Assembly: GCF_000025685.1 (NCBI RefSeq)
Contig: NC_013967.1
Location: 1,290,001 to 1,322,000, forward strand
Length of the DNA stretch: 32,000 nt
Direction: 5' to 3'
Source: Haloferax volcanii DS2
GTDB taxonomy: Archaea > Halobacteriota > Halobacteria > Halobacteriales > Haloferacaceae
The notes beneath the pieces were generated by a model. That model made no database searches. It saw only the letters and a list, made by a program, of their open reading frames with translations, and was not told the origin of the DNA. The first letter of the stretch is position 1, and each line of letters starts with the position of its first letter. Made by a program: the position numbers and the translations under genes. Of this stretch, positions 1,746-18,510 are shown one piece after another.

Positions 1746-3083
1746 TCAGTCGCCGGCCTGCGCCGCCTCGCCGTGACCGCCGTGGCCGTCATCACCAACA
1801 GACTCCGAGCGGTGGAGCCAGTAGAGGACGCCGAACAAGCCGGTCGCGAACACGTTCAACACGAGTTTGTAGTCGGCCTCGATACTCACCTCCGCGATTT
1901 GGACGCTCTCGGGGGCCGGGATGAGCCCCGCGCCGAGGAAGACGAAGTGGATGACGACGCCCGTCAGGACCGCCGCCACGAATATCATCCCCGAGAGGAC
2001 GGCCGCGAACGTCGTCCCGTAGTACTCGCGGTAGGCGTCCACGATGGGCGGGACGATGAGGTCGGCGTAGATGTAGCTCAGGACGCTCCCGAACGGCAGG
2101 CCGTTCGAAAAGAGGACCGCCCCGAACGGGACGTTCCCGACCGAGCAGACGAAGGTGGCGACGCCGATGACGGCCCCGAGGACCGCGGTCCAGAAGACGT
2201 ACACCGGCAGCCCGAACGTCGGCCCCGAGAACACCGAGGTCCACACCGCGTCGGGGATGAAGCCGGCGATGAGGCCGGCGAAGACGAAGCCGATGGCGAT
2301 TTCGTCCCAGAGCATCCCCCACTCCTTCCACTGCTTGTCGGCCAGCGCCTTCCACCCCGACAGCGACGTGGCCCGCTCGCGAACCGTCGTGTTGGCCTCT
2401 TCGGGGTCGAAGCTCTCCTTGCACGACTTCGAGCAGAAGTAGAACGTCCGGCCGTCGCGTTCGACGCTGTACTCCGTCTCGTCGGGGTCGACTTCCATCC
2501 CGCAGACGGGGTCGCGGACGGTCTCGCTTCCCTCGTCTTGGACGTTCCGTCGGGCCTGCTCGACCACCTCGTCGGGCACGAGGTAGACGAAGCCGAACGC
2601 CATCAGCCCGATGAGGATGAACCCGCCGAGGATGTCGGCCACGAGGAACTGCCAGCCGAGCAGAATCCAGATGACCGCGCCGATTTCGATGACGAGGTTG
2701 GTCGAGGCGAACATGAACGCCCCGAGGGTCGCCGCCGCGGAGCCGCCTTTCTTAAAGAGGTTCTTCGCGGTGGCGATGGCGCTGTACGAACACGACGAGG
2801 AGACGAAGCCGAACAGCGAGCCGTAGCCGATTTCGCGCGGGCCGTGGCCCTCGAGCAGCTCAGAGACCTCCTCGCCGGAGGTCCACGCCTCCACGCCGCC
2901 GGCGATGGCGAAGCCGACGACGAGCGCCCACCACGTCACCCACGCCATGGCCGCGGTGGTTGAAAGCGCCTCTCGGGCGCTCTCGACGAGGAACGTCCCG
3001 AGCGGCTGTGTGGTCGTGAACACGCCGAGTCCGACCGTCGCGGCTGCGATGACCGCGAGTATCGCGTATTCGCTCCGGTCCAT
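1746..3083 (-). CDS. Multi-pass permease (COG0701/ArsP-like predicted permease) with an inserted cytoplasmic YHS/TRASH metal-binding domain
   Basis: 445-aa ORF with many hydrophobic segments. The central segment DPVCGMEVDPDETEYSVERDGRTFYFCSKSCKESF is a classic YHS/TRASH CxxC...C motif. Confidence 0.8.
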   Translation of the reverse strand: MDRSEYAILAVIAAATVGLGVFTTTQPLGTFLVESAREALSTTAAMAWVTWWALVVGFAIAGGVEAWTSGEEVSELLEGHGPREIGYGSLFGFVSSSCSYSAIATAKNLFKKGGSAAATLGAFMFASTNLVIEIGAVIWILLGWQFLVADILGGFILIGLMAFGFVYLVPDEVVEQARRNVQDEGSETVRDPVCGMEVDPDETEYSVERDGRTFYFCSKSCKESFDPEEANTTVRERATSLSGWKALADKQWKEWGMLWDEIAIGFVFAGLIAGFIPDAVWTSVFSGPTFGLPVYVFWTAVLGAVIGVATFVCSVGNVPFGAVLFSNGLPFGSVLSYIYADLIVPPIVDAYREYYGTTFAAVLSGMIFVAAVLTGVVIHFVFLGAGLIPAPESVQIAEVSIEADYKLVLNVFATGLFGVLYWLHRSESVGDDGHGGHGEAAQAGD

Positions 3084-3348
3084 GTGATTGAGTATGAGGG
3101 AAGCCGTACCTAACTGGGTTGTGCCTAGCAGAATCGGGGTCCCGGCGCGACGCGAGTTCTGATTGTGAACTCCGACGGGGCGGAGAGTTCAGAACGTGAG
3201 CCGTCGCGTTCGGCTCGCGCCGTCGGAGCGACGGAGCGTCACCGGCTCGAAACTCGCTCGGGCGTCAAACGTCCCGTAGGAGGCGTAATACGGCCTGTCT
3301 CTCGGGGTACCCAGAAAGTTAACTTCGAGTAGCACCTCCGTTTCTCCC

Positions 3349-4026
3349 GTGACTATCACTACGGAGATCGTTATTCGTTCGTCTGCGCTGCCGTTCGTCC
3401 GTCTCGCGAAATCGGTTCCGTCGAACCAGATCGAATGCGTACACGGCCTCTGCCACGAGGGGAACTCTCGGGTGTTCATGCTCTACGTCGACCCCGACGC
3501 GGACATCTCCGAACCCGACCTGTTGGCCTTCGACGAAGTCGTCGCCGTCGACGCGCTCGGGCGCGCGAGCGGTAAGGACGTCTTCCAAACCACCATCCAA
3601 CTGGACGACGTCGTCTCGGAAGCGTTCGCCCCCGAGCGGTTCACCGCGACCCAGGTGGAGCGGACGGTCGTCACGCCCGACGGCTGGTACGAAAAGAAGC
3701 TCTTTCAGAACTACAACGCGTTCAACGGGATGCGAACCCGCTGCGAGGAGTACGGTATCTCTATCGAGCTGATTTCTATCACGCAGAACCCCCGGGAACG
3801 CGACGAGTCGTCGCAGTACGGACTGACCGAGCGACAACAGGAGGCGCTGACGCTCGCCATCTCCCGCGGCTACTACGAGAGCCCGCGGCAGGTCTCGACC
3901 GAAGAGCTCGCCGAGGAGATGGGTATCTCGCAACCCTCCATGTCGAGTCTCCTCCGCCGCGGCGAGCGCCAGCTTCTCACCTCCGCGCTCGGCTCGCAGT
4001 CGCAGATCAACACGGTCAGCAGATAG
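3349..4026 (+). CDS. Bat-type (HTH_10) helix-turn-helix transcriptional regulator
   Basis: 225-aa ORF with a GTG start. The C-terminus LTERQQEALTLAISRGYYESPRQVSTEELAEEMGISQPSMSSLLRRGERQLL is the typical haloarchaeal bacterio-opsin-activator-type HTH_10 domain. Confidence 0.75.
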   Translation: MTITTEIVIRSSALPFVRLAKSVPSNQIECVHGLCHEGNSRVFMLYVDPDADISEPDLLAFDEVVAVDALGRASGKDVFQTTIQLDDVVSEAFAPERFTATQVERTVVTPDGWYEKKLFQNYNAFNGMRTRCEEYGISIELISITQNPRERDESSQYGLTERQQEALTLAISRGYYESPRQVSTEELAEEMGISQPSMSSLLRRGERQLLTSALGSQSQINTVSR

Positions 4027-4958: not shown

Positions 4959-4972
4959 ATGGGCGCTACAGG
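4959..4972. repeat. attR core: displaced copy of the tRNA-Arg 3' end
   Basis: Exact 14-nt match to 17486-17499. On the minus strand it is followed by GATTTTTCGG, a T-tract expected of the original tRNA terminator. Confidence 0.6.
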
Positions 4973-5034: not shown

Positions 5035-6081
5035 CTACCACGGGAGGTGATTCCGCCGCTGTTCGGCCCGCTCACGCTCTCCACGGCGGTCATAGTGCTT
5101 ATCGAGCACCAGGTCACTCGCGTCGAGGCGGTCAGACACCACCCGACGCGGCACTTCCTCCCGCCGATAGAGCGTAACCACCCCCTTCCGAACGTCGTGG
5201 GGAGACCGAGAAGACGGACACGTACTGACGTGATTCAGTTCCACCGCCTCGCACGTCTCGATGTCTCGATTGTGCGGGCAACCCTGATTCAGCCAGCACG
5301 GGCGAGTAACCACGTACACGTCCTGCCGAATCGTACTCGCGGAAACCCGTCCGTGAGAAGTCGTCAGTAGCGGCTTCCGACCGAACTCGTCGGTCTTGTC
5401 GACACGCGGGCCGTCGATGTACGCCTGTAACATCGTGCCCACCCGGTCAGACACCGAGTTGAACCGCTCCCCTTTCTCGCCGTTCTTGATGGGCGTGCCC
5501 TGGTCGGGCCGGTGCTTGTACCGGACGACCGGCGTCCGGCCGTCGAGGTCGAGGTCGCGCAGGTCGAGGCCACGAATCGCGCCCATCCGCGCGCCCGTCT
5601 CCCACAGCAACGCGAATTCGACGTGCCGCCGGGAAGCGTAGTGGTAGCGGTGGAGGTATTCGAGGATGTCAGTCGCCCGGTCCGGTTCGAGCGTCGAATC
5701 ACTCACGTCGTCCGTCCCGGACAACTTCGGCAGCGGCACCCGCTCGTAGAAGTCCTCGGGAACCGCGTGGATGTTCGCCGCGAACCGGAGGAACGCCCGA
5801 AGCGTAGTGAGCTGTGATTTGAGCGTGACCGGCGCGATTTCCTCCGGCGTCTCGCCGTCCTCCACGCCGAAGTTCCCTTCGCGTCTCCAGACGCGGAACT
5901 CGTAGAGGTCCCGGCCGTCGAGCTCGGTCAGGTCGTCGACGCCTGATTCTTCGCACCACTCGACGAACGCCCGGAGTCGGTACTTGTGGGACTTCAACGT
6001 CCAGTCCGCGAGTTCGTCCTGGCGGGCCTCCAGGTACATTCGGACCGCGCGAGCAGGTTCGAGCGATTCGAGCTCACTCAT
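5035..6081 (-). CDS. int: Tyrosine recombinase / phage-type integrase
   Basis: 348-aa ORF with an N-terminal SAM-like core-binding region (LKSHKYRLRAFVEWC). The catalytic pattern is Arg in ETGARMGAIRGL, HxxR in SPHDVRKG, and the tyrosine region LDKHYDRR. It lies next to the att repeat. Confidence 0.9.
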   Translation of the reverse strand: MSELESLEPARAVRMYLEARQDELADWTLKSHKYRLRAFVEWCEESGVDDLTELDGRDLYEFRVWRREGNFGVEDGETPEEIAPVTLKSQLTTLRAFLRFAANIHAVPEDFYERVPLPKLSGTDDVSDSTLEPDRATDILEYLHRYHYASRRHVEFALLWETGARMGAIRGLDLRDLDLDGRTPVVRYKHRPDQGTPIKNGEKGERFNSVSDRVGTMLQAYIDGPRVDKTDEFGRKPLLTTSHGRVSASTIRQDVYVVTRPCWLNQGCPHNRDIETCEAVELNHVSTCPSSRSPHDVRKGVVTLYRREEVPRRVVSDRLDASDLVLDKHYDRRGERERAEQRRNHLPW

Positions 6082-6386
6082 CGAATCACCCCCGAATCGG
6101 GTTCACTTCCGGTCCATTCGCTACGCTTACAACCGCGGTGCGATAACTCAATCATGGCTTCCATTGTGAGGCCGCGGTCCGGGTCGAGGACGCCAACCCT
6201 GCCAGAAGCAGCGTCCTCGAAAGGGACCGTCAGCCGGGTAATCCATTCGATACCCCTACTTAAAGTCCTGAGCCATAGCCGCGGAGTGAAAGTGTACGTT
6301 TGAGCGAAAGTAAAACCCATTTCTGTCAGTCTGTCAACAGCCGTCCGTCGTGGGGCTTCAATAGCCCGAGTCGTGTAGGCAAACAT
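6078..6386 (-). CDS. Hypothetical protein upstream of and overlapping the integrase start (ATGA overlap)
   Basis: 102-aa ORF whose TGA (6080-6078) overlaps the integrase ATG (6081-6079). I recognise no motif, so the call rests only on the coupling geometry and ORF length. Confidence 0.3.
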   Translation of the reverse strand: MFAYTTRAIEAPRRTAVDRLTEMGFTFAQTYTFTPRLWLRTLSRGIEWITRLTVPFEDAASGRVGVLDPDRGLTMEAMIELSHRGCKRSEWTGSEPDSGVIR

Positions 6387-6602
6387 GCTTCCGTACCTGT
6401 ATTACGGGAGCCACCGCGGGCCAGCGTGGCAGCGCTGGGTCCGCTTCTGACGCCGACTGAACAACAGTCAGCGTCGCGTGTAGCTTCCGTTGGCCGATAG
6501 AACAGATTGTCTGTACTTAATTCTACCTGCGATATTCGTATCTATAGATAAGGATTAGATTTTTTCAGAGTGGGATTAAATAAGTGAAGTCGCCTTATCG
6601 GG

Positions 6603-6893
6603 ATGATAATCACATTCCGGCGTATTCAGAATTGTATGAGAAGACGGGCAGACTGGTGGGTCTTGGCAGATGACATGATCCTAGAGTATATCTCAGACGA
6701 AGGAACAGGAACACCGAAGGTCATCAGCAAAGAGATCGACAGGAGTCAGGGCTACGTCAACCAGCGGTGCAGTCTGCTCGAGTCGTACGGCCTTCTGACG
6801 AAAGTTGCCCGCGGAGTCTACACGTTATCTGAAGCAGGAAAGCAGTACCTTTCTGAGGATTTGGACGCTTCAACGTTAGAGAAAAGCGAGTAA
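6603..6893 (+). CDS. Winged-helix DNA-binding protein, resembling small haloviral repressor-type (phiH1-repressor-like) wHTH proteins
   Basis: 96-aa ORF in the AT-rich island. The pattern DWWVLADDMILEYI..GTPKVISKEIDRSQGYVNQRCSLLESYGLLTKVARGVYTLSEAGKQYL has typical wHTH architecture (helices followed by a G.Y.L wing). The true start may be the internal Met at 6636. Confidence 0.6.
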   Translation: MIITFRRIQNCMRRRADWWVLADDMILEYISDEGTGTPKVISKEIDRSQGYVNQRCSLLESYGLLTKVARGVYTLSEAGKQYLSEDLDASTLEKSE

Positions 6894-6900
6894 GGTAGCA

Positions 6901-6950
6901 CCCACCACCCTTACCCGTAAGGGGGCGGGTGGATGGGTGGTTTGTTGTTT
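6901..6950 (+). terminator. Putative terminator: stem-loop followed by a T-rich tract
   Basis: CCCACCACCC (6901-6910) can pair with GGGTGGaTGGG (6927-6937, one bulge). An inner hairpin CCCTTA-cccg-TAAGGG lies at 6908-6923. The structure is followed by TTTGTTGTTTG, directly after the wHTH stop codon. Confidence 0.3.
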
Positions 6951-7043
6951 GAATTTGTCAGTCAATTCAATAACTGAATTCTTAGTGAGGTTGAAACAGT
7001 TCTAGACATAACGACTTTTACTACAGAAGCATATCCAACAATA

Positions 7044-8123
7044 ATGAAGAGAGGAATTGACACTTCTGAGGTTGAACAAAAACTACCGATCACCACAGAA
7101 TTATATGGTCGTGCGATTCCATCTGGAATAATATATGATCCAGACTATGAAAATGATGCACTCCCAGAATTCCTGGATGATGAAGACTGGATAACGTATA
7201 TACCAAACCAAGATGGCGAACTGAGTTTTGTCAAAAGTGAACCAATTACTAGTGTGTACTTCGGGAAAGAGCCAGAGAACCCAGAGACAGACATAAATTT
7301 GCAATTTTTTGATGTTTATTATCAACATCTTTCCTTCCCAAATATTATGGGTCTTATGCCGAGTCTACTAGATGACATCAGAAATTTAGCCACGGTATTA
7401 TCAAAAGTCGCATACTACCAGTCAGATCTTTCAGATCTTAATGCAGCGATCCAGCAATTCATTCGCACAGAGTTGGAGTATCTATTTATGGTCTCAAGAA
7501 GCGCATATGACAACCTTCAATTCATCATTGCGAATACGTGGGAAAAGTTACACACTATAGACGGAGATGAAGACTATAGTGCCCAATTGCCAACCAGCTC
7601 TTTTAAAGACGTGGCACTTAGCGGGAATGATCCTGTTCCAGTAGAAGACCTTGAGGACAAATATGGGCTCCCAAAAGCGCTAGCGGAATTCTATTCTGAT
7701 GAAGCCGTGTTCTTTTCAAAGATTCGTGAGTTCAGAGATTCGGTCACCCACCAAGGAGACTCTCCAAAAACTATATTCATTGCGAGTGATGGGTTAGCAG
7801 TTGACACGACCAAAGAACCGTACTGTAATTTTAATGTATGGGAAGATGAGCACATCGTTAATAATGGAATAGCACCGCTTTGGCCATTCATCGCACACGT
7901 AGTTGATCAGACGGTGTCTGCTCTCAAGCGATTCATAGTTGGTCTCTTTGATCAGAGAATCAAGGTACTACCACCGATAGCAAAGGGATATGATGTTTAT
8001 ATTCGCGGAGGGAATGTCGGGAATTTGAACCACTTGGACAGTCTAATGCATGATGACCGATGGGGAAAAGAGTTCATCAAGTCTGTAGAAGAAAGAGTCC
8101 AACATTCACCACCCTCTAACTGA
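7044..8123 (+). CDS. Hypothetical acidic protein with an HEPN-like Rx4H motif (candidate RNase/abortive-infection-type effector)
   Basis: 359-aa ORF, the longest in the AT-rich segment. The protein is still acidic and halophile-like (DPDYENDALPEFLDDEDW). The motif IREFRDSVTHQG resembles the HEPN [LF]R[ND]xxxH signature and is preceded by predicted helical segments (ELEYLFMVSRSAYDNLQFIIANTWEKL). Confidence 0.65.
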   Translation: MKRGIDTSEVEQKLPITTELYGRAIPSGIIYDPDYENDALPEFLDDEDWITYIPNQDGELSFVKSEPITSVYFGKEPENPETDINLQFFDVYYQHLSFPNIMGLMPSLLDDIRNLATVLSKVAYYQSDLSDLNAAIQQFIRTELEYLFMVSRSAYDNLQFIIANTWEKLHTIDGDEDYSAQLPTSSFKDVALSGNDPVPVEDLEDKYGLPKALAEFYSDEAVFFSKIREFRDSVTHQGDSPKTIFIASDGLAVDTTKEPYCNFNVWEDEHIVNNGIAPLWPFIAHVVDQTVSALKRFIVGLFDQRIKVLPPIAKGYDVYIRGGNVGNLNHLDSLMHDDRWGKEFIKSVEERVQHSPPSN

Positions 8124-8225
8124 TTGTTTTTGAAGAATCCTATGTAACTCCGCCCAGTCTTCGAACGGGTCCTGAGACAGGTCATTCGGAAGATGCCACA
8201 CCCAGGGCGCGGCGTCGTCCAAGTC
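8124..8225 (-). pseudogene. Remnant of the 3' end of a second, diverged pleolipovirus NTPase gene
   Basis: The minus-strand translation DLDDAAPWVWHLPNDLSQDPFEDWAELHRILQ aligns without gaps to the C-terminus of the intact NTPase (DPDDAAPWAWNLPSDLFQEQFENWSEFHKILQ). By hand count, 21/32 aa and 72/96 nt are identical (8130-8225 vs 9321-9416). No upstream part of the gene is present. Confidence 0.65.
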
Positions 8226-8229
8226 GGAG

Positions 8230-9027
8230 CTACTCGTCCTCAGCAAACTCCAGATTCGAGTGCTTGTATGTGTAGAGCCGGATGTTCTGATCGTAGCAGT
8301 ACGAGGCATACAGCGCCGGGTGAATCGTTTCCCAGTTCCCCGGACCTTCGTCGAGGCTGGACGGGAACGCAACGCTGACCGCTTCGCCTTCCATCTCCAC
8401 ACCGTACGCGCCGGTGTTCTGTTCCGGTGGCAGCACCTCTACGACGATTGCAACTGACGCATCTTTGTCGCCCTTCTTTTTCACGCGGTCGCCGGGCGAG
8501 AACGGATTCTCCGGCTTCTGGTTCATGTACGCCGTGTTCGGTCCGAGGTCGATGAGTTCGTTCATCGGCCGGGCCGCGAGGTGATCCAGTTTCTCGGGTG
8601 CCTCGCCGGAATACTTCTCTTGCGAGGCCGCTTTCGATTTCAGCGTCTCGGTGCGCTCCCAGCCGAGCAGGATGAGACTGTCTTCGTTGTCCCGATGCCA
8701 GACCATCACGATGATGTCATCGTCCGGGTCGTTGTCGAGGAGGGTTTCGGGAAGGAACGCGGATACGTCGCGAGAGGTCTTCACGTCGACCTCGTAGCCG
8801 AACACTTCGAAGTCGTACGACGAGAAACTTTCAGGGTTGCATCGCCGCATCGCTTCTTCGTTCTTCCACTCCCAGAGTTCGACTGGGAGGTATTCGCGGC
8901 AGAACTGTTCGAACGCGAGTTCTCCAAGGTTCCCGATTCGCTTTACGTCGAGGTTCTTTCGGTCTTGGACCTTCGCCTGGTGGTTGGCGCGTTCGTAGTC
9001 GATTTCGTCCGGGGTATAGCGGTACAC
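8230..9027 (-). CDS. PD-(D/E)xK-like nuclease domain protein with a C-terminal beta-rich (SH3/KOW-like?) extension
   Basis: 265-aa ORF. The N-terminal half has GNLGELAFEQFCREYL ... SYDFEVFGYEVDVKTSRD, a D...(D/E)xK arrangement typical of the restriction-endonuclease fold. The C-terminal half reads FSPGDRVKKKGDKDASVAIVVEVL...GAYGVEMEGEAVSVAF. Confidence 0.6.
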   Translation of the reverse strand: MYRYTPDEIDYERANHQAKVQDRKNLDVKRIGNLGELAFEQFCREYLPVELWEWKNEEAMRRCNPESFSSYDFEVFGYEVDVKTSRDVSAFLPETLLDNDPDDDIIVMVWHRDNEDSLILLGWERTETLKSKAASQEKYSGEAPEKLDHLAARPMNELIDLGPNTAYMNQKPENPFSPGDRVKKKGDKDASVAIVVEVLPPEQNTGAYGVEMEGEAVSVAFPSSLDEGPGNWETIHPALYASYCYDQNIRLYTYKHSNLEFAEDE

Positions 9028-9119
9028 TATCTACGAGAGGACATGGTATGGAATTGAATCTTTCTCGAAGTATTAATATCACAGTCTTTGTTGATATTTA
9101 CAAGTGATTTTAATAGGTA
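9028..9119. promoter_or_regulatory. AT-rich divergent promoter region between the nuclease-like gene (-) and the zinc-finger ORF (+)
   Basis: The 92-nt spacer is very AT-rich (…TATTAATATCACAGTCTTTGTTGATATTTACAAGTGATTTTAATAGGTATTG…) with several TATA-like elements on both strands. Confidence 0.35.
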
Positions 9120-9308
9120 TTGTTGAGAAGGATACATATGGCAGGTGACTACTGGTGTGAGGAGTGCCAGAGATGGATTGATAGTGGTGAAGTTACTGAA
9201 ACCTCTGAAGAAACAAAGCCAGGAGCCCCAATGAGGACGAAGTATGAACACAATCTATGTGGGATGGAGGTTCAAAAAGCACAAACGGAGGACGAAGGCC
9301 CGCGATAA
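9120..9308 (+). CDS. Small zinc-finger/zinc-ribbon protein
   Basis: 62-aa ORF (alternative start Met at 9138). It has CxxC (YWCEECQRW) plus a distal H..C (YEHNLCG). Its stop codon abuts the NTPase stop codon tail-to-tail (9306-9308 / 9309-9311). Confidence 0.4.
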   Translation: MLRRIHMAGDYWCEECQRWIDSGEVTETSEETKPGAPMRTKYEHNLCGMEVQKAQTEDEGPR

Positions 9309-10286
9309 TCAATTACTATTTTGCAATATTTTGTGAAACTCGCTCCAGTTCTCGAACTGCTCCTGAAACAGGTCGCTCGGCAGGTTCCACGCCCACGGCG
9401 CGGCGTCGTCCGGGTCGTACGTCTCCAGCGTCGGTTCGAGGTTCACGAGCGAGCCGCCGAACAGCTCACCATCAGGCGAGTCTGAATCGGCGTCCCAGTC
9501 GCGGTAGAACGTCACTTCGTCCTGCGCCTCTTTGTAGAACGACAGCGTCGAGAGCCGTTTCTGTTCGGGATGCACGTCCTTCCCGGTGTGGCTCACCACG
9601 CCGACGGACTCGACGCCGAGCTTCGAGAACCGCTTAATCGCGGGCGTCCACTGGGACGCCACTTCGCGGCTGAACGTCCGGGCGTCGAAGTGCGTCGAAC
9701 CTTCGTCGATAGTGACGGTCTTCGGCCGCTCGCGGTGGGTCAGCAGTACGTCCATGAGGTCGTACATCGACCGCACCACGATGTCCGCGCCGTCCCACGT
9801 CCCCACGTTCGAGATGACCAGCAGGTCATCACCGAAGTGCGCCCGCGCGAGGTCGCCGTTCAAGAGGAACATCGTGTTCGTCTTCCCCGTGTTCGGGTTC
9901 CCCGCGCCGGTGATGGTCGTGAGACCACCGCCGTTTTCGAGCTCGTCGACGAGCCGAAGCGGCAGTGTCAGCGAACTGGCGTCGAGGTCCTGTTGAGTCA
10001 CGCCGACGAGGTACGAAAGCGCGGTCGCGTGCGACGACTGCACCGCGCGGGTCGCGGCTTGGGTCCGCAGCGACGAATCGACGAGGCGACCGAGCGAGGT
10101 CTCGGCGAACGAGTCGGCCAGCTCGTCGTCCTCGGTGAGGTCGAGCGAGTTCAGGAACGACAGGTTCGCGTGGTCGCCCTTCGAGACCGGCAGTCCCGCG
10201 TGGTCGAGCAGCCGGTGGTCGCCGTCGATGCGCCCGCGTACTTGTTCGTACAACTTCGCCGCCGTCAGCAGCCGTTCGTCGGTCAC
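9309..10286 (-). CDS. Pleolipovirus-type P-loop NTPase (HRPV-1 VP8/ORF8-like)
   Basis: 325-aa ORF with a GTG start. Walker A is GAGNPNTGKT and Walker B-like is KTVTIDEGS. It occupies the last position of the structural operon, as in pleolipoviruses. Confidence 0.85.
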   Translation of the reverse strand: MTDERLLTAAKLYEQVRGRIDGDHRLLDHAGLPVSKGDHANLSFLNSLDLTEDDELADSFAETSLGRLVDSSLRTQAATRAVQSSHATALSYLVGVTQQDLDASSLTLPLRLVDELENGGGLTTITGAGNPNTGKTNTMFLLNGDLARAHFGDDLLVISNVGTWDGADIVVRSMYDLMDVLLTHRERPKTVTIDEGSTHFDARTFSREVASQWTPAIKRFSKLGVESVGVVSHTGKDVHPEQKRLSTLSFYKEAQDEVTFYRDWDADSDSPDGELFGGSLVNLEPTLETYDPDDAAPWAWNLPSDLFQEQFENWSEFHKILQNSN

Positions 10287-11657: not shown

Positions 11658-12247
11658 GCGACACGCTCCATGTCACGGTGAAGGCCGAAGCGCCGCCGGA
11701 CGATTATCAGGAGCGCACCGAACGACGTGCCGAGCGCGCCGCCGATAGCCGCGTCTCGCACGTCCGTTCCAGTGAACGGACCGGCGATAAGCGCCGAACC
11801 GCCGTCGTCAAACCGGATTTCGGTATATCGGCCGTTCTCGACGGAGTACGACGTGACGAGAGTCACCCGCGGTTCCGGGGAGTCGATTCGAATCGTCGTC
11901 CGTCCTGGCGGAATCGGTCTGCGAACCAGATTCCCAGCCGCGGCACCGGTCGAGGTCGAGCCGGTCGGCGCGGTCACGGTGACCGTCCGCGGCAGGTCCG
12001 ATTCGAGTACGAGCACGGCGGTCCCGTCGACGTACTCGGCGGAGACGATTCGCACCGCGCGGTCGCCGGCCACGTCGCCGTAGTACGTCGTCTCGTTCGA
12101 CGACTCCGAAGCCGTGGTCGGAGCCGCGGCTGTCGTCGTCTCTGTCGGAGCAGACGCGGTCGCGGTCTCTTGGGCGGCGACTGTGCCAGAGGCAGCGAGC
12201 AGCAGAGCGATACAACTGACGAGTATGATAGTGTGTATTCGAGTCAT
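11654..12247 (-). CDS. Provirus secreted/anchored protein (signal peptide plus C-terminal TM anchor)
   Basis: I prefer the ATG at 12247 (MTRIHTIILVSCIALLLAASGTVAAQE, signal-peptide-like) over the 12391 start given in the track. The protein has a T/A-rich linker and a C-terminal anchor AAIGGALGTSFGALLIIVRRRF. Confidence 0.6.
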   Translation of the reverse strand: MTRIHTIILVSCIALLLAASGTVAAQETATASAPTETTTAAAPTTASESSNETTYYGDVAGDRAVRIVSAEYVDGTAVLVLESDLPRTVTVTAPTGSTSTGAAAGNLVRRPIPPGRTTIRIDSPEPRVTLVTSYSVENGRYTEIRFDDGGSALIAGPFTGTDVRDAAIGGALGTSFGALLIIVRRRFGLHRDMERVA

Positions 12248-12281: not shown

Positions 12282-12455
12282 TTACAGCAGCGACCCGAAC
12301 CAGTCGCCCGACCAGTCGGGCACGCCGAGCAGGTCGAGCAGCAGGTCCGAACCCATCCCGACGAGGTCGATGCCCGCGAGTTGCAGAGCACCAGCGAGCA
12401 CGACCGCGCCGGCGATGGTCCCGATGGGCAGCTGCTTCAAGAACCAGAGGAGCAT
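12282..12455 (-). CDS. Small provirus membrane protein (57 aa)
   Basis: The ATG at 12455 lies 1 nt after the spike stop codon (12457-12459). The sequence is MLLWFLKQLPIGTIAGAVVLAGALQLAGIDLVGM... The upstream extension in the track overlaps the spike gene and is not protein-like. Confidence 0.5.
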   Translation of the reverse strand: MLLWFLKQLPIGTIAGAVVLAGALQLAGIDLVGMGSDLLLDLLGVPDWSGDWFGSLL

Positions 12456-12456
12456 C

Positions 12457-13970
12457 CTACTCGTTGCCCTCCCGCTGGATGAGTAGCACCGCAGCAGCGC
12501 CAACCAGCAGCGCGATACCGAGCGCCTGCGAGTCGAGGCCACCGGAGCCACCGGAGCCGCCACTTGACTGCTCCCGCTCCTCGATGTCTTGGCGAAGGGA
12601 TTCGAGTTCGTTCGTCATGTTGACGAACTCACTCGTGTTCGTCGTTTTGTACACGTACTGCGTCGTGTTCTGCGACTGCACCGAAGACCCGTCGCGAGCA
12701 GTTATCTCGGTGATGGTGAAGGTACCGTCGAGGTCGACCTTCTCGCCGGTCGCGGTGGCGATGAACACCGGGCCGTCGATGGCCGAGGCGTTGTAGGTCG
12801 TGTTCGCGGACCACGACCCGTTAGGCGCGGAGCGAGCCAGCACGAGACCCTGATAGGTAACGTTCGCCGTCCCCGATTGGTCGGTGACGTTCATCAGCCC
12901 GGACGACTGCATGTCCGGCACATCGAAGCCCATCAGAGCGAGCGCCGCCGTCGAGTCGTACAGCGAGGTCGAGTCGGAACCCGACTGGGTACCGTATTCG
13001 AACATCGCCGTGTTCGCGCTAATCACGTCGGACGAGTTGATGTTTCCAGCCGCGAAGTCGTCGTAGGTCGCATTCACGAAGTTCGACGCCTCCGCTTGGA
13101 GGTCGTCGTTCTTCGTCTCGTAACGCGCCCAGCGGTCAGCGAACGACTGGTGTTCGATGAAGGTCATCGAATCGTAGTTGCTGTTCGGCGCGGCGATTTC
13201 CCAGCCGCGGAAGCCCCAGCCGAAGTTCCCGTCTATCTGCAACCACTCGTGCCGGGCCGGAGTCACGTAGTACGTCTCGTACGTGTTGACGCTGTTGTAA
13301 CCGTCTCCGATAGTGTAGTTGTAGGCGAGCACGTCAGCAGACGAATCGTTGACGAGAGTCACAGACGATGTGTTCAGGCCTTCGTAGGTCTTCGAGACCG
13401 ACCAGCCACTCCCGCTATCGACTTGTGCGAAGTCGTCTTTCGTGACGAATGTCGAGTTGTTAATCGGCTCCGACTCGGAGCGTTCTTCGATACTCACCTC
13501 AGCGGCAGAGACGGTCGCATTCCACCGCGCAATGTCGTTCTTCTGCTTGACAGCGTAGTAGTCAGCAATCGCCCGTCTCGCGTCGATACGGGCCTGCTCT
13601 TTCGTCTTGCCGTCCTCGTACGCTTCAGCGACAGCTACCTGCGCTTTCATCCACGCGACCGACTCGGTGTCGTTCAGGTAGTTGTCCATCGCCGTGTTGT
13701 ACGAGTCGAGCGAGGTCTTCTCAGCCGACGCCGCAGAATACAGTTCGACTTTATCCTGCGTCCCGTCGAGGTCGAGCGTCGAGTCGGTCGGGTTGAACCG
13801 ACACTCGTCGCCGTTCGGGTTAATCAGACTGTTGATGAACGCCGATATCGCGGAATCGGAGACATCGCAGTCTTGGAACCCGAGCGTCGCGGACACTGGA
13901 CCCGAAGCACCTGCTGTCACGAGCAAGACAGCAAACAGGACAGCGAGCCCGCGTCGAGCGAACTCGCGCA

Positions 13971-13971
<1 letters not shown>
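12457..13971 (-). CDS. Pleolipovirus VP4-like spike/fusion glycoprotein
   Basis: The start is taken at ATG 13971, giving the signal peptide MREFARRGLAVLFAVLLVTAGASGPVSA. The large ectodomain has many N-x-S/T sequons. The C-terminus has a heptad-like LESLRQDIEEREQ, a GGS linker and the TM anchor ALGIALLVGAAAVLLI. It sits after the VP3-like gene. Confidence 0.8.
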
Positions 13972-14858
<887 letters not shown>

Positions 14859-17485: not shown

Positions 17486-17499
17486 ATGGGCGCTACAGG
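17486..17499. repeat. attL core overlapping the 3' end of tRNA-Arg
   Basis: Exact copy of ATGGGCGCTACAGG (4959-4972). It covers the 3' acceptor strand and the start of the T-arm of the tRNA on the minus strand. Confidence 0.6.
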
Positions 17500-17561
17500 A
17501 TTTGAACCCGTGGCAACTTGGTCCGAAGCCAAGCACTCTGTCCAGACTGAGCTAAGCGCCC
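17487..17561 (-). tRNA. tRNA-Arg (anticodon UCG)
   Basis: The reverse complement folds as a cloverleaf: GGGCGCU-UA-GCUC-AGUCUGGAC-AGAGU-G-CUUGG-CUUCGGA-CCAAG-UUGCC-ACGGG-UUCAAAU-CCUGU-AGCGCCC-A. It has a 7-bp acceptor stem, a GGUUCAAAU-type T-loop and anticodon loop CU-UCG-GA. Confidence 0.9.
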
Positions 17562-17655: not shown

Positions 17656-18510
17656 ATGTCTCTCGGTACGCGAGCGCGCGGGTTCGTCGAACTCACCCGA
17701 CCGGGAAACGCCGTCGCTGCCGGCGTCCTCACGTTCACCGGGGCGTTCGTCGCCGGGGCGGCCCCGAGCGACGCGCTCGTCGTCGTCGCGGCGATGCTCG
17801 CCACCGTGTTCGCCACGGGCGCGGGCAACGCCATCAACGACTACTTCGACCGCGATATCGACCGCATCAATCGCCCGGACCGTCCGATTCCCCGCGGCGC
17901 GGTGACCGCGCCCGAGGCCAAGTGGTTCAGCGTCGCGCTGTTCGGCGGCGCGGTCGTCTCGGCGCTCGTCCTCCCGGTCGTCGCCATCGCCATCGCCGTG
18001 GTCAACCTCGTCGCGCTCCTCGCGTACACGGAGTTCTTCAAGGGTCTCCCGGGCGTCGGCAACGTCGTCGTCGCCGCGCTCACCGGCTCGACGTTCCTGT
18101 TCGGCGGCGCGGCCATCGGCGAACCGTTGGGCGCGGCCGTCCTCTGTGTGCTCGCCGCGCTGGCGACGCTGACCCGCGAAATCGTCAAAGACGTCGAGGA
18201 CATCGGCGGCGACAGAGAAGAGGGGCTTCGGACACTCCCCATCGTCGTCGGCGAGGCGGCGTCGCTGTGGCTCGGCGCGGTCGTCCTCGTGGTCGCCGTC
18301 GGCGCGAGCGCGGTGCCGTTCGTCCGGGGGGAGTTCGGACTGGCGTATCTCGGCGTGGTCGTCCCCGCCGACGCGCTCATGCTCGCCGCCACCGCGCAGT
18401 CGTTCGGTAATCCGGCCGCGGCCCAGCGCCGACTCAAACACGGGATGTTCTTGGCGGCGTTCGCGTTCATCCTCGGACGGGCGACGGCGCCAGCGGGAAG
18501 TCTCTTATAA
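17656..18510 (+). CDS. Digeranylgeranylglyceryl phosphate (DGGGP) synthase, UbiA prenyltransferase family
   Basis: The sequence MSLGTRARGFVELTRPGNAVAAG... contains NAINDYFDRDIDRINRPDRPIPRG (the UbiA NxxxDxxxD motif) and a second Asp-rich motif KDVEDIGGDRE. It has multiple TM helices. I prefer the start at 17656 over 17599. Confidence 0.85.
   Translation: MSLGTRARGFVELTRPGNAVAAGVLTFTGAFVAGAAPSDALVVVAAMLATVFATGAGNAINDYFDRDIDRINRPDRPIPRGAVTAPEAKWFSVALFGGAVVSALVLPVVAIAIAVVNLVALLAYTEFFKGLPGVGNVVVAALTGSTFLFGGAAIGEPLGAAVLCVLAALATLTREIVKDVEDIGGDREEGLRTLPIVVGEAASLWLGAVVLVVAVGASAVPFVRGEFGLAYLGVVVPADALMLAATAQSFGNPAAAQRRLKHGMFLAAFAFILGRATAPAGSLL

Follow-up and report, generated by a model that had tools for sequence, protein, structure and literature searches.

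A variable cargo slot of the Haloferax volcanii provirus Halfvol3 and its candidate defence genes

Introduction

Hotspots of defence genes are known in temperate phages and satellites, for example in P2 and P4. The locus described here is the region at 6490-9310 of a 32,000-nucleotide stretch of contig NC_013967.1 of Haloferax volcanii DS2 (positions 1,290,001 to 1,322,000; hereafter the window, in which all coordinates are given unless another record is named), and it lies inside Halfvol3, a provirus of a temperate pleolipovirus. Haloferax volcanii is the main archaeal genetic model and has one culturable virus, HFPV-1. When Halfvol3 is deleted, infection by this virus becomes more severe, with a virus:host ratio up to about 10-fold higher (PMC9436352).

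The provirus and its exclusion phenotype are thus already published, and what is new here is the characterisation of the cargo genes at the level of their families, the comparison of the region with the equivalent hotspot in related viruses, and a re-annotation of the cargo of one of these, Halfgib1. We describe the anatomy and mosaic origin of the region, the independence of its genes, the sizes of their families and the motifs that these conserve. On balance we favour, with modest confidence, the reading that the region is a cargo slot of Halfvol3 filled with independently acquired cassettes, and that these cassettes are candidate causes of the restraint that the provirus exerts on HFPV-1.

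Results

The Halfvol3 slot and its equivalents in related viruses

The provirus is bounded in the window by an exact 14-nt direct repeat with copies at 4959 and 17486, a spacing of 12,527 bp:

4959..4972, no strand: attachment (att) repeat ATGGGCGCTACAGG, left end of Halfvol3; partner copy at 17486-17499, within tRNA-Arg(TCG) at 17487-17561

Because the size, the att length and the tRNA are the same as those published for Halfvol3, which spans HVO_1422 to HVO_1434, the element in the window is Halfvol3 (PMC12091111, PMC7911831). An exact-sequence look-up identified the 359-amino-acid (aa) protein of the region as HVO_1424 (D4GY13_HALVD) and its winged helix-turn-helix (wHTH) protein as HVO_1423, both of Haloferax volcanii, and found the adjacent nucleoside triphosphatase (NTPase) annotated as "homolog to virus protein HRPV1-VP8".

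The window was compared by BLASTN with Haloferax virus Halfgib1, plasmid pHK2 and the provirus of Hfx. denitrificans. The backbone on both sides of the region is 91-96% identical to these three relatives, and similarity is lost at 6495, returns for a short distance at 6840-6944 and resumes at about 9333. The slot is bordered by the 3'-terminal parts of the wHTH gene (about 6840-6944) on one side and of the NTPase gene (about 9319-9445) on the other, and the content between these borders is different in all four elements:

Halfvol3: HVO_1424, HVO_1425 and a zinc-finger gene
pHK2: one open reading frame (ORF) of 200 aa
Hfx. denitrificans provirus: a 72-aa ORF, a DUF7961 gene and a gene for a 158-aa protein
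Halfgib1: five genes, including a type II restriction-modification (R-M) system, a DUF7961 gene and a gene for a SIR2-TPR protein

Two of the Halfgib1 genes gain a clearer identity from profile matches. HfxHg1_070 (8994-10115 of the Halfgib1 genome, minus strand), deposited as a hypothetical protein, matches the PADLOC model REase_II (E = 3e-30) and pairs with the adjacent Dcm methyltransferase, itself matched at E = 5e-107. HfxHg1_085 (12552-14219, minus strand), deposited as a TPR protein, begins with a Pfam SIR2_2 domain (E = 1e-13) and matches PADLOC Aga_SIR2 at E = 1.5e-52. The deposited annotations of both appear to understate their function, the SIR2 domain being of the Argonaute-associated type, and a published survey lists Halfgib1 as the sole archaeal virus with a sirtuin (PMC9503650).

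A fixed position, conserved flanks, four cargo sets and recognised defence genes in Halfgib1 together mark the slot, as far as sequence comparison can tell, as a hotspot for defence cargo. A preliminary description of this DNA had placed the genes in an accessory, variable slot of a temperate pleolipovirus, and the conserved borders, the differing content and the Halfgib1 defence genes bear this out. Because the Halfgib1 slot carries defence systems, the prior for the same role is higher for the cargo of Halfvol3, whose two larger genes lie as follows, with a relic of the NTPase gene between them:

7044..8123, plus strand: HVO_1424, 359 aa, cargo cassette 1; member of the Rx4H family; GC content at third codon positions (GC3) 0.39
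8128..8226, minus strand: NTPase 3'-end remnant, non-functional; first copy of a 99-nt direct repeat whose second copy, at 9319-9417, is 76% identical
8230..9027, minus strand: HVO_1425, 265 aa, cargo cassette 2, named from gene order; DUF7961_N and DUF7961_C

The remnant at 8128-8226 translates to DDAAPWVWHLPNDLSQDPFEDWAELHRILQ, as compared with the NTPase C-terminus, and the two copies of the repeat bracket the DUF7961 and zinc-finger genes. A remnant of the NTPase end also occurs after the 355-aa gene of Hfx. mediterranei (9115-9258 of the retrieved locus) and after DUF7961 in Halfgib1 (12395-12509). The DUF7961 block itself has sharp borders, comprising the gene and 39 bp upstream and ending at 9066, and it recurs in three proviruses behind differing upstream genes. 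Recombination between the two repeat copies in the window would delete the cassette of DUF7961 and zinc finger and produce a junction of the Hfx. mediterranei type. A 98-aa ORF at 8106-8402 (minus strand) was rejected as a gene and is an artefact, its last 37 codons being the NTPase remnant and its overlap with the 3' end of DUF7961 lying in another frame.

At the same tRNA-Arg attachment site, Hfx. mediterranei (CP007551, 7413-10338 of the retrieved locus) has a low-GC relic that contains a wHTH gene near-identical to that of Hfx. denitrificans, a 355-aa homologue of HVO_1424, the NTPase-end remnant, a gene for a 254-aa multi-pass membrane protein and an 80-aa zinc-finger ORF. The relic has neither integrase nor structural genes and looks like a decayed provirus that has kept its cargo. 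Because its 355-aa gene directly precedes the NTPase remnant, the junction between HVO_1424 and the NTPase end was ancestral, with DUF7961 and the zinc finger arriving later. It is likely that related viruses exchange the content between the borders by recombination, that imprecise events leave nested remnants of the NTPase end, and that the three cargo items of Halfvol3 were acquired at different times beside the virus's own repressor.

Separate cassettes in a single slot

When six proteins were searched by TBLASTN against 47 retrieved loci, the 38 loci that carry a relative of HVO_1424 all lacked DUF7961, and the 8 other DUF7961 loci all lacked a relative of HVO_1424. Because the two genes do not co-occur, the zinc finger is an orphan, the wHTH gene belongs to the backbone and HVO_1424 has no conserved neighbour, the region is a mosaic of independent single-gene cassettes.

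This count contradicts the single four-gene module proposed in the preliminary description, in which a regulator, two effectors and a small zinc-finger protein were expected to occur together in other genomes. The wHTH protein had been cast there as the regulator of the cargo, and it turns out to be the lysogeny regulator of the lineage, and pHK2, Halfgib1 and Hfx. denitrificans have homologues at that position; the zinc finger, cast as a further member, has no homologue in the phage and plasmid collections or in the 47 loci. Other parts of that description held. Its suggestion that the gene combination is not any named system agrees with PADLOC-DB v2, which contains no match for the 359-aa, 265-aa and zinc-finger proteins, and family-wide scans were likewise negative; the wHTH protein had only weak matches there, to the helix-turn-helix portions of CARF, CasR and AbiEi models. 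Profile and fold searches also gave no cargo gene a virion or replication function, an assignment that would have spoken against a defence role. What remains of the defence interpretation is an accessory slot, invariant motifs, defence genes in the Halfgib1 slot and an effect of the whole provirus on HFPV-1, and what falls is the single system.

HVO_1424 belongs to a large family with an invariant Rx4H motif

A word-indexed search returned only 10 relatives of HVO_1424, and the size of the family was obtained from an exhaustive hidden Markov model (HMM) search, which gave 575 cluster representatives at 50% identity, of which 260 lie below 1e-30. Almost without exception they are 320-360 aa long and align from end to end. 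A profile search of the word index with a diverse alignment found almost no further relatives; a contig scan with a close alignment found none, though Hfx. volcanii and Hfx. mediterranei carry the gene, and it is uninformative, these stretches probably being masked. By genome scan, relatives occur in Planctomycetota, Bacteroidota, Verrucomicrobiota, Cyanobacteria and many Proteobacteria (Burkholderia, Pseudomonas, Sphingobium, Sorangium) as well as in haloarchaea. The family is represented in 0 of 50,697 phage records and in 2 of 72,556 plasmids.

Only Y72, R231 and H236 are invariant among 41 family members of 22-59% identity. The local consensus F..lR.[FY]R[DN].[IV].H.G resembles in form the Rx4-6H motif of HEPN RNases: the residue after R231 is D or N in most of the 41 sequences (T, V or E in a few), and a G usually stands two positions past the H, a pattern seen in many HEPN families. 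A chance Rx4H would be expected in about one quarter of single proteins by our own estimate, and the weight of the motif lies in its invariance across the family. In the AlphaFold2 (AF2) model (predicted local distance difference test score, pLDDT, 72; predicted template modelling score, pTM, 0.77) four long helices are seen, with Rx4H at the end of the third; insertions lie between the helices, and the N-terminal region is conserved and beta-rich (Y72, D83). Foldseek gave no significant match to this model, and the sole thematically consistent matches were the HEPN proteins 1wwp, AbiV (9bj7) and toxin 7bxo, all at E > 3. The best HEPN profile match among the 41 members, a single one to HEPN_Cthe2314 at E = 0.037, is at noise level.

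Clustering of 169 neighbour proteins from 30 bacterial loci revealed no recurrent neighbour family, and no antitoxin gene is conserved next to HVO_1424, the wHTH gene upstream of it in Halfvol3 and Hfx. mediterranei being the backbone regulator. On a metagenomic contig, an HVO_1424 homologue is followed by a convergent gene (2871-3665, minus strand) for a 264-aa protein that has an Rx4H motif of its own, RETCAH, and is matched by no Pfam or PADLOC model; the low-GC patch there may hold two HEPN-like genes. Taken together, the family alignment and the model indicate that HVO_1424 is most probably a stand-alone, enzyme-like protein of HEPN-like character, a predicted RNase whose membership in the HEPN class is unproven. 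Its invariant Rx4H on a predicted four-helix core suggests an HEPN-type RNase that would act alone, in the manner of abortive-infection proteins.

HVO_1425 is a DUF7961 protein with a predicted nuclease core

HVO_1425 matches phrog_18072 at E = 1e-175. Its two domains, DUF7961_N (PF25902) and DUF7961_C (PF25903), are known from precomputed Pfam matches of the 99%-identical Hfx. denitrificans protein and of all 120 listed homologues; a scan of HVO_1425 against a local Pfam copy did not report the DUF7961 models. The family comprises more than 320 clusters. Residues E36, D72 and D81-V-K83 are invariant in 28 DUF7961 sequences, and in the model (pLDDT 78) they fall on helix 23-46 and the consecutive strands 73-75 and 78-85 of a predicted alpha-beta-beta-beta-alpha-beta core. 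This arrangement is that of a PD-(D/E)xK domain and points to a putative nuclease. The C-terminal part is predicted to form one small beta-barrel domain, which is present as two tandem copies in most relatives. Most DUF7961 proteins are 335-346 aa long with a duplicated barrel, and the copies of Haloferax proviruses and a few metagenomic ones are a natural form of 263-267 aa with one barrel.

All Foldseek matches of the model were non-significant; the top ones were NaeI (E = 0.12), the influenza PA endonuclease, HincII and the Cas4 protein SSO0001, together with Agenet, Tudor and chromo barrels, which align to the C-terminal part. No nuclease model of Pfam or PADLOC matches HVO_1425, for which NCBIfam likewise gave nothing significant, and no methyltransferase that could be its partner is encoded within 6490-9310. 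Nor is DUF7961 the restriction partner of Dcm in Halfgib1, a possibility that was considered and rejected, as that methyltransferase is already paired with a separate REase_II, HfxHg1_070. A PD-(D/E)xK-type nuclease joined to a small beta-barrel suggests a restriction-like enzyme that would target nucleic acid.

The genomic contexts of DUF7961 are varied. In Halfgib1 it stands between the R-M system and the SIR2-TPR gene; on pHLAC01 of Halorubrum lacusprofundi it adjoins a restriction endonuclease, an adenine methylase, an AAA ATPase and DUF4268; on a Halomontanus plasmid its neighbours are DUF4268, a NucS-domain nuclease, a restriction endonuclease and BrxL; and in Halobacterium jilantaiense they are HNH_2 and a DEAD/MZB helicase. 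Genomes also exist in which it adjoins TnpB, conjugation genes or a ribbon-helix-helix (RHH) pair. At the chromosomal site shared by Natronorubrum and Natrinema (6608-8023 and 5620-7014 of the retrieved loci), the gene is preceded by a 46-aa ORF and lies near Cob_adeno_trans and DUF7838, and its stable inheritance there contrasts with the mobile contexts elsewhere.

Composition and reading frames of the island

The region at 6490-9310 has a GC content of 0.475 and is the lowest 2.8 kb in the window; the segments of 2821 bp that lie clear of it have a mean of 0.662, a standard deviation of 0.031 and a minimum of 0.598, which makes the dip one of about 6 standard deviations. Its edges are sharp, at about 6450-6500 and 9300-9350. 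The abrupt drop reported in the preliminary description is therefore real, and its two sampled lines were recounted at 23/60 (7081-7140) and 40/60 (18001-18060). The four reading frames that it named (wHTH, 359 aa, 265 aa and zinc finger) are each found in the ORF list, and so are their motifs, RDSVTH (R231-x4-H236) in the 359-aa protein and D72 with D81-V-K83 in the 265-aa protein; all four proteins are acidic, as it had stated, with isoelectric points of 4.4-5.2. Its statement that the island holds no pleolipovirus core genes has to be withdrawn on two counts, the wHTH gene being a backbone gene of the lineage and 8128-8226 being a copy of 99 nt of the NTPase 3' end.

Composition within the island is heterogeneous. 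GC3 is 0.39 in HVO_1424, 0.44 in the zinc-finger gene, 0.60 in the wHTH gene and 0.77 in HVO_1425, the last being close to the 0.80-0.86 of the backbone genes, and the island is foreign by composition in part only. An origin in a lower-GC halophile, which had been put forward for all of it, is supported for the 359-aa gene. Haloarchaeal copies of HVO_1424 have a GC3 of about 0.40 wherever they are located, in hosts of 60-66% GC, and a homologue with 42% identity is carried by contigs whose GC content is 45% throughout and whose proteins are acidic. That halophile, to which the homologue is compositionally native, is a possible candidate for the donor lineage, and HVO_1424 was probably imported from a low-GC halophile.

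The regulator, the zinc finger and the flanking backbone

The remaining features of the region and its flanks are these:

5035..6081, minus strand: tyrosine integrase HVO_1422, backbone; shares 98.6% identity with its Halfgib1 counterpart; Pfam domains Phage_integrase and SAM-like
6078..6386, minus strand: 102-aa homologue of pHK2 ORF12, backbone; upstream of the integrase gene, overlapping its start
6387..6602, no strand: AT-rich spacer between the divergently transcribed integrase operon and wHTH gene; GC 0.34-0.46 at 6450-6600
6603..6893, plus strand: winged-helix regulator HVO_1423, phiH-repressor type; longest ORF 96 aa, annotated start at 6636 (85 aa)
9028..9137, no strand: very AT-rich spacer between the divergently transcribed DUF7961 and zinc-finger genes; GC 0.31; presumed promoters
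9138..9308, plus strand: 56-aa acidic CxxC...HxxC zinc-finger protein; longest ORF 9120-9308, annotated ATG at 9138; convergent with the NTPase gene, abutting its stop codon
9309..10286, minus strand: VP8-like NTPase HVO_1426, backbone; phrog_1979 at E = 4e-106; 96-98% identical to the Halfgib1 and pHK2 proteins

HVO_1423 matches phrog_2440 (E = 3.7e-29) and, weakly, Pfam HTH_24. Its homologues occupy the equivalent position in pHK2, Halfgib1 and the Hfx. denitrificans provirus, and the Halfvol3 version is a divergent allele with 41% identity to those of Halfgib1 and pHK2. These homologues are 86-87 aa long, and the internal ATG at 6636 is probably the real start. By its position and relatives the wHTH protein is the virus's own lysogeny regulator and a part of the backbone, outside the cargo. 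The AT-rich region at 6387..6602 is probably a lysogeny switch or operator, and the perfect 10-bp palindrome ATCTATAGAT at 6540-6549 (within 6534-6555), exactly at the point of loss of similarity to Halfgib1, may be the operator of the immunity switch. Both HVO_1423 and the integrase gene HVO_1422 are down-regulated by HFPV-1 (PMC9436352). The 102-aa ORF between them has counterparts in Hfx. denitrificans (11891-12199 of the retrieved locus) and in Halfgib1 (HfxHg1_095), and an Rfam scan of the provirus found the tRNA and nothing further.

The exact 56-aa zinc-finger sequence is annotated in National Center for Biotechnology Information (NCBI) records of 55 contigs, and no homologue was found in the phage collection, in the plasmid collection or by TBLASTN of the 47 loci; Pfam, PADLOC, PHROGs and NCBIfam models likewise gave it no significant match. 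HVO_1425A, first called a small RNA, was later shown by Ribo-seq to be translated (PMC10117724), and the zinc-finger protein, from its position between HVO_1425 and HVO_1426, is probably this gene product. A 74-aa ORF on the minus strand (9027-9251) was considered in its place and rejected, being basic, hydrophobic and annotated nowhere. Of the interval 9028-9137, no more than the 39 bp immediately upstream of DUF7961 accompany it in Halfgib1 and Hfx. denitrificans (boundary at 9066).

Discussion

Both larger cargo genes of Halfvol3 are expressed. Mass spectrometry of a caesium chloride (CsCl) fraction from culture supernatant detected HVO_1424 and HVO_1425, which by spectral count ranked directly behind the spike protein among the Halfvol3 proteins (16 and 10; PMC12091111, Table 5). 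The same fraction contained cytoplasmic R-M and Avs2 proteins and, according to its authors, abundant cell debris (PMC12091111), and because of these contaminants the detection speaks for expression and not for association with virions. The literature searched assigns no function to either gene; we infer their enzymatic activities as well as an antiviral role. It is most likely that the cargo genes serve competition with other viruses or mobile elements, and alongside the repressor they are candidates, plausible but unproven, for the cause of the Halfvol3-dependent restraint of HFPV-1.

Several observations weigh against this reading. The phenotype in the literature is that of a whole-provirus deletion, and none is described at the single-gene level for HVO_1424 or HVO_1425. 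The authors who reported the exclusion favour the repressor HVO_1423 as its cause (PMC9436352), as does a 2026 paper (PMC13612827), and only HVO_1422 and HVO_1423 respond transcriptionally to HFPV-1 (PMC9436352). HVO_1424 itself has no match in Pfam, PADLOC, PHROGs or NCBIfam, nor do any of the 41 family members rise beyond noise in these; sequence-profile searches of the Protein Data Bank (PDB) with both families gave no real matches, Foldseek searches of PDB and BFVD with both proteins gave E values of 0.1 or more throughout, and the AF2 models are of moderate quality only (pLDDT 72 and 78). The neighbours of the bacterial HVO_1424 homologues are mixed, a few being of mobile or defence types (GmrSD, resolvases, reverse transcriptase, SoFic and terminase) and others housekeeping genes. 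As for DUF7961, the chromosomal site that it occupies in Natronorubrum and Natrinema is syntenic and free of mobile genes, and across families and orders its identity to the copy in the window stays flat at 71-82%, which is unusually high for a defence gene. Such flat identity looks like horizontal spread under strong constraint.

A serious rival, which we regard as possible and rather unlikely, is that exclusion is due to the phiH-type repressor HVO_1423 alone, with HVO_1424 and HVO_1425 as mere passengers, selfish or neutral; DUF7961 could, for instance, be a mobile nuclease of homing-endonuclease type that inserts at the 3' end of the NTPase gene. The restriction of the HFPV-1 response to HVO_1422 and HVO_1423, both down-regulated, and the choice of the repressor as best candidate by those who described the phenotype (PMC9436352, PMC13612827) are in its favour. 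So too are several properties of DUF7961: the sharp edges of its cassette (the gene and 39 bp), a bracketing duplication that resembles a target site, a flat identity across orders that looks like horizontal spread, and the presence of TnpB or conjugation genes beside it in some genomes. However, both families are under strong purifying selection with invariant residues of catalytic type, both proteins are expressed (PMC12091111), the equivalent slot of Halfgib1 holds bona fide defence genes, DUF7961 recurs in R-M and BREX neighbourhoods, and homing endonuclease genes are rarely so conserved or so persistent at syntenic chromosomal sites.

The same evidence, extended beyond our preferred reading of a slot with independent candidate cassettes, would make HVO_1424 the founding and experimentally tractable member of a large family of stand-alone HEPN-like effectors of abortive infection or exclusion and, alone or with DUF7961, the cause of the restraint on HFPV-1, and would make the interval between NTPase and repressor a defence hotspot of pleolipoviruses, an archaeal counterpart of those of P2 and P4. 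We put this forward tentatively and think it doubtful as a whole.

That HVO_1424 and HVO_1425 are ordinary proteins of the pleolipovirus life cycle, whether virion-associated or engaged in replication or packaging, is quite improbable. Their prominence in the CsCl fraction, second only to the spike protein at 16 and 10 spectral counts (PMC12091111, Table 5), speaks for this reading, but cytoplasmic R-M and Avs2 proteins and debris were present in that fraction too, and pHK2 does without either gene. Moreover, none of the 50,697 phage records contains HVO_1424, which PHROGs lacks as well, DUF7961 is known from a single virus record, the homologues are for the most part carried on chromosomes or plasmids outside any provirus, and neither model has a structural match to viral proteins.

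Least probable is a single defence or superinfection-exclusion system whose parts evolved together, the wHTH protein regulating RNase and DNase effectors with the zinc finger as accessory, for although the genes are adjacent in a segment of low overall GC, the provirus has an antiviral phenotype (PMC9436352) and a wHTH gene also precedes the 355-aa homologue in Hfx. mediterranei, the two effector genes are never together elsewhere, the zinc finger is an orphan, the wHTH gene holds its position in relatives without both effectors (its adjacency in Hfx. mediterranei being positional), the cassettes differ in GC3 (0.39 versus 0.77) with an NTPase remnant between them, and no partner gene is conserved beside the bacterial homologues of HVO_1424.

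The alternatives to the repressor are narrowed here to two expressed, enzyme-like cargo genes in a slot that is a defence hotspot in the sister virus Halfgib1, and the cause of the restraint that Halfvol3 places on HFPV-1 becomes directly testable with existing strains. Should HVO_1424 prove active, several hundred unannotated bacterial and archaeal proteins would gain a function, and an active DUF7961 would do the same for a gene represented in over 300 protein clusters of haloarchaea.

Comparison with known systems

Immunity of the phiH-repressor type is matched by HVO_1423, a small wHTH protein divergently encoded from the integrase operon and the published candidate for the HFPV-1 effect (PMC9436352). 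It differs from the cargo in belonging to the backbone, and such a repressor explains homo-immunity naturally, whereas an effect on HFPV-1 needs cross-recognition of the operators of that virus.

DUF7961 resembles the PD-(D/E)xK restriction nucleases that carry a reader or binding domain, such as the type IIE enzyme NaeI and type IV enzymes, in having E...D...DxK on a predicted core that is followed by one or two barrels. NaeI is the top, non-significant Foldseek match of HVO_1425, and R-M and BREX genes are frequent neighbours of the family. Unlike these nucleases, the Halfvol3 gene has no methyltransferase partner, and the conservation of DUF7961 is far above that usual for restriction enzymes.

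The nearest likeness of HVO_1424 is to stand-alone HEPN abortive-infection (Abi) proteins (AbiD/F, AbiU2, AbiV) and toxins (DUF86 / HEPN-MNT). It departs from them in lacking a significant HEPN profile or fold match, in its much larger size of about 330-360 aa and in having no MNT or other antitoxin gene beside it. Shared with them are an invariant R-[DN]-x3-H followed by G, a predicted core of four long helices, a single-gene organisation with no conserved partner and a patchy spread across domains of life, and AbiV and a toxin are among its weak fold matches.

The slot as a whole compares best with the hotspots of P2 and P4. Here the host element is an archaeal pleolipovirus with a chronic, non-lytic infection, the borders are the 3' ends of the wHTH and NTPase genes, exchange leaves nested remnants of the NTPase end, and the defence role of the Halfvol3 cargo is putative. 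In common with those hotspots, it has a fixed position, conserved bounding genes, a content that differs between close relatives, and cargo that consists of stand-alone genes or small systems.

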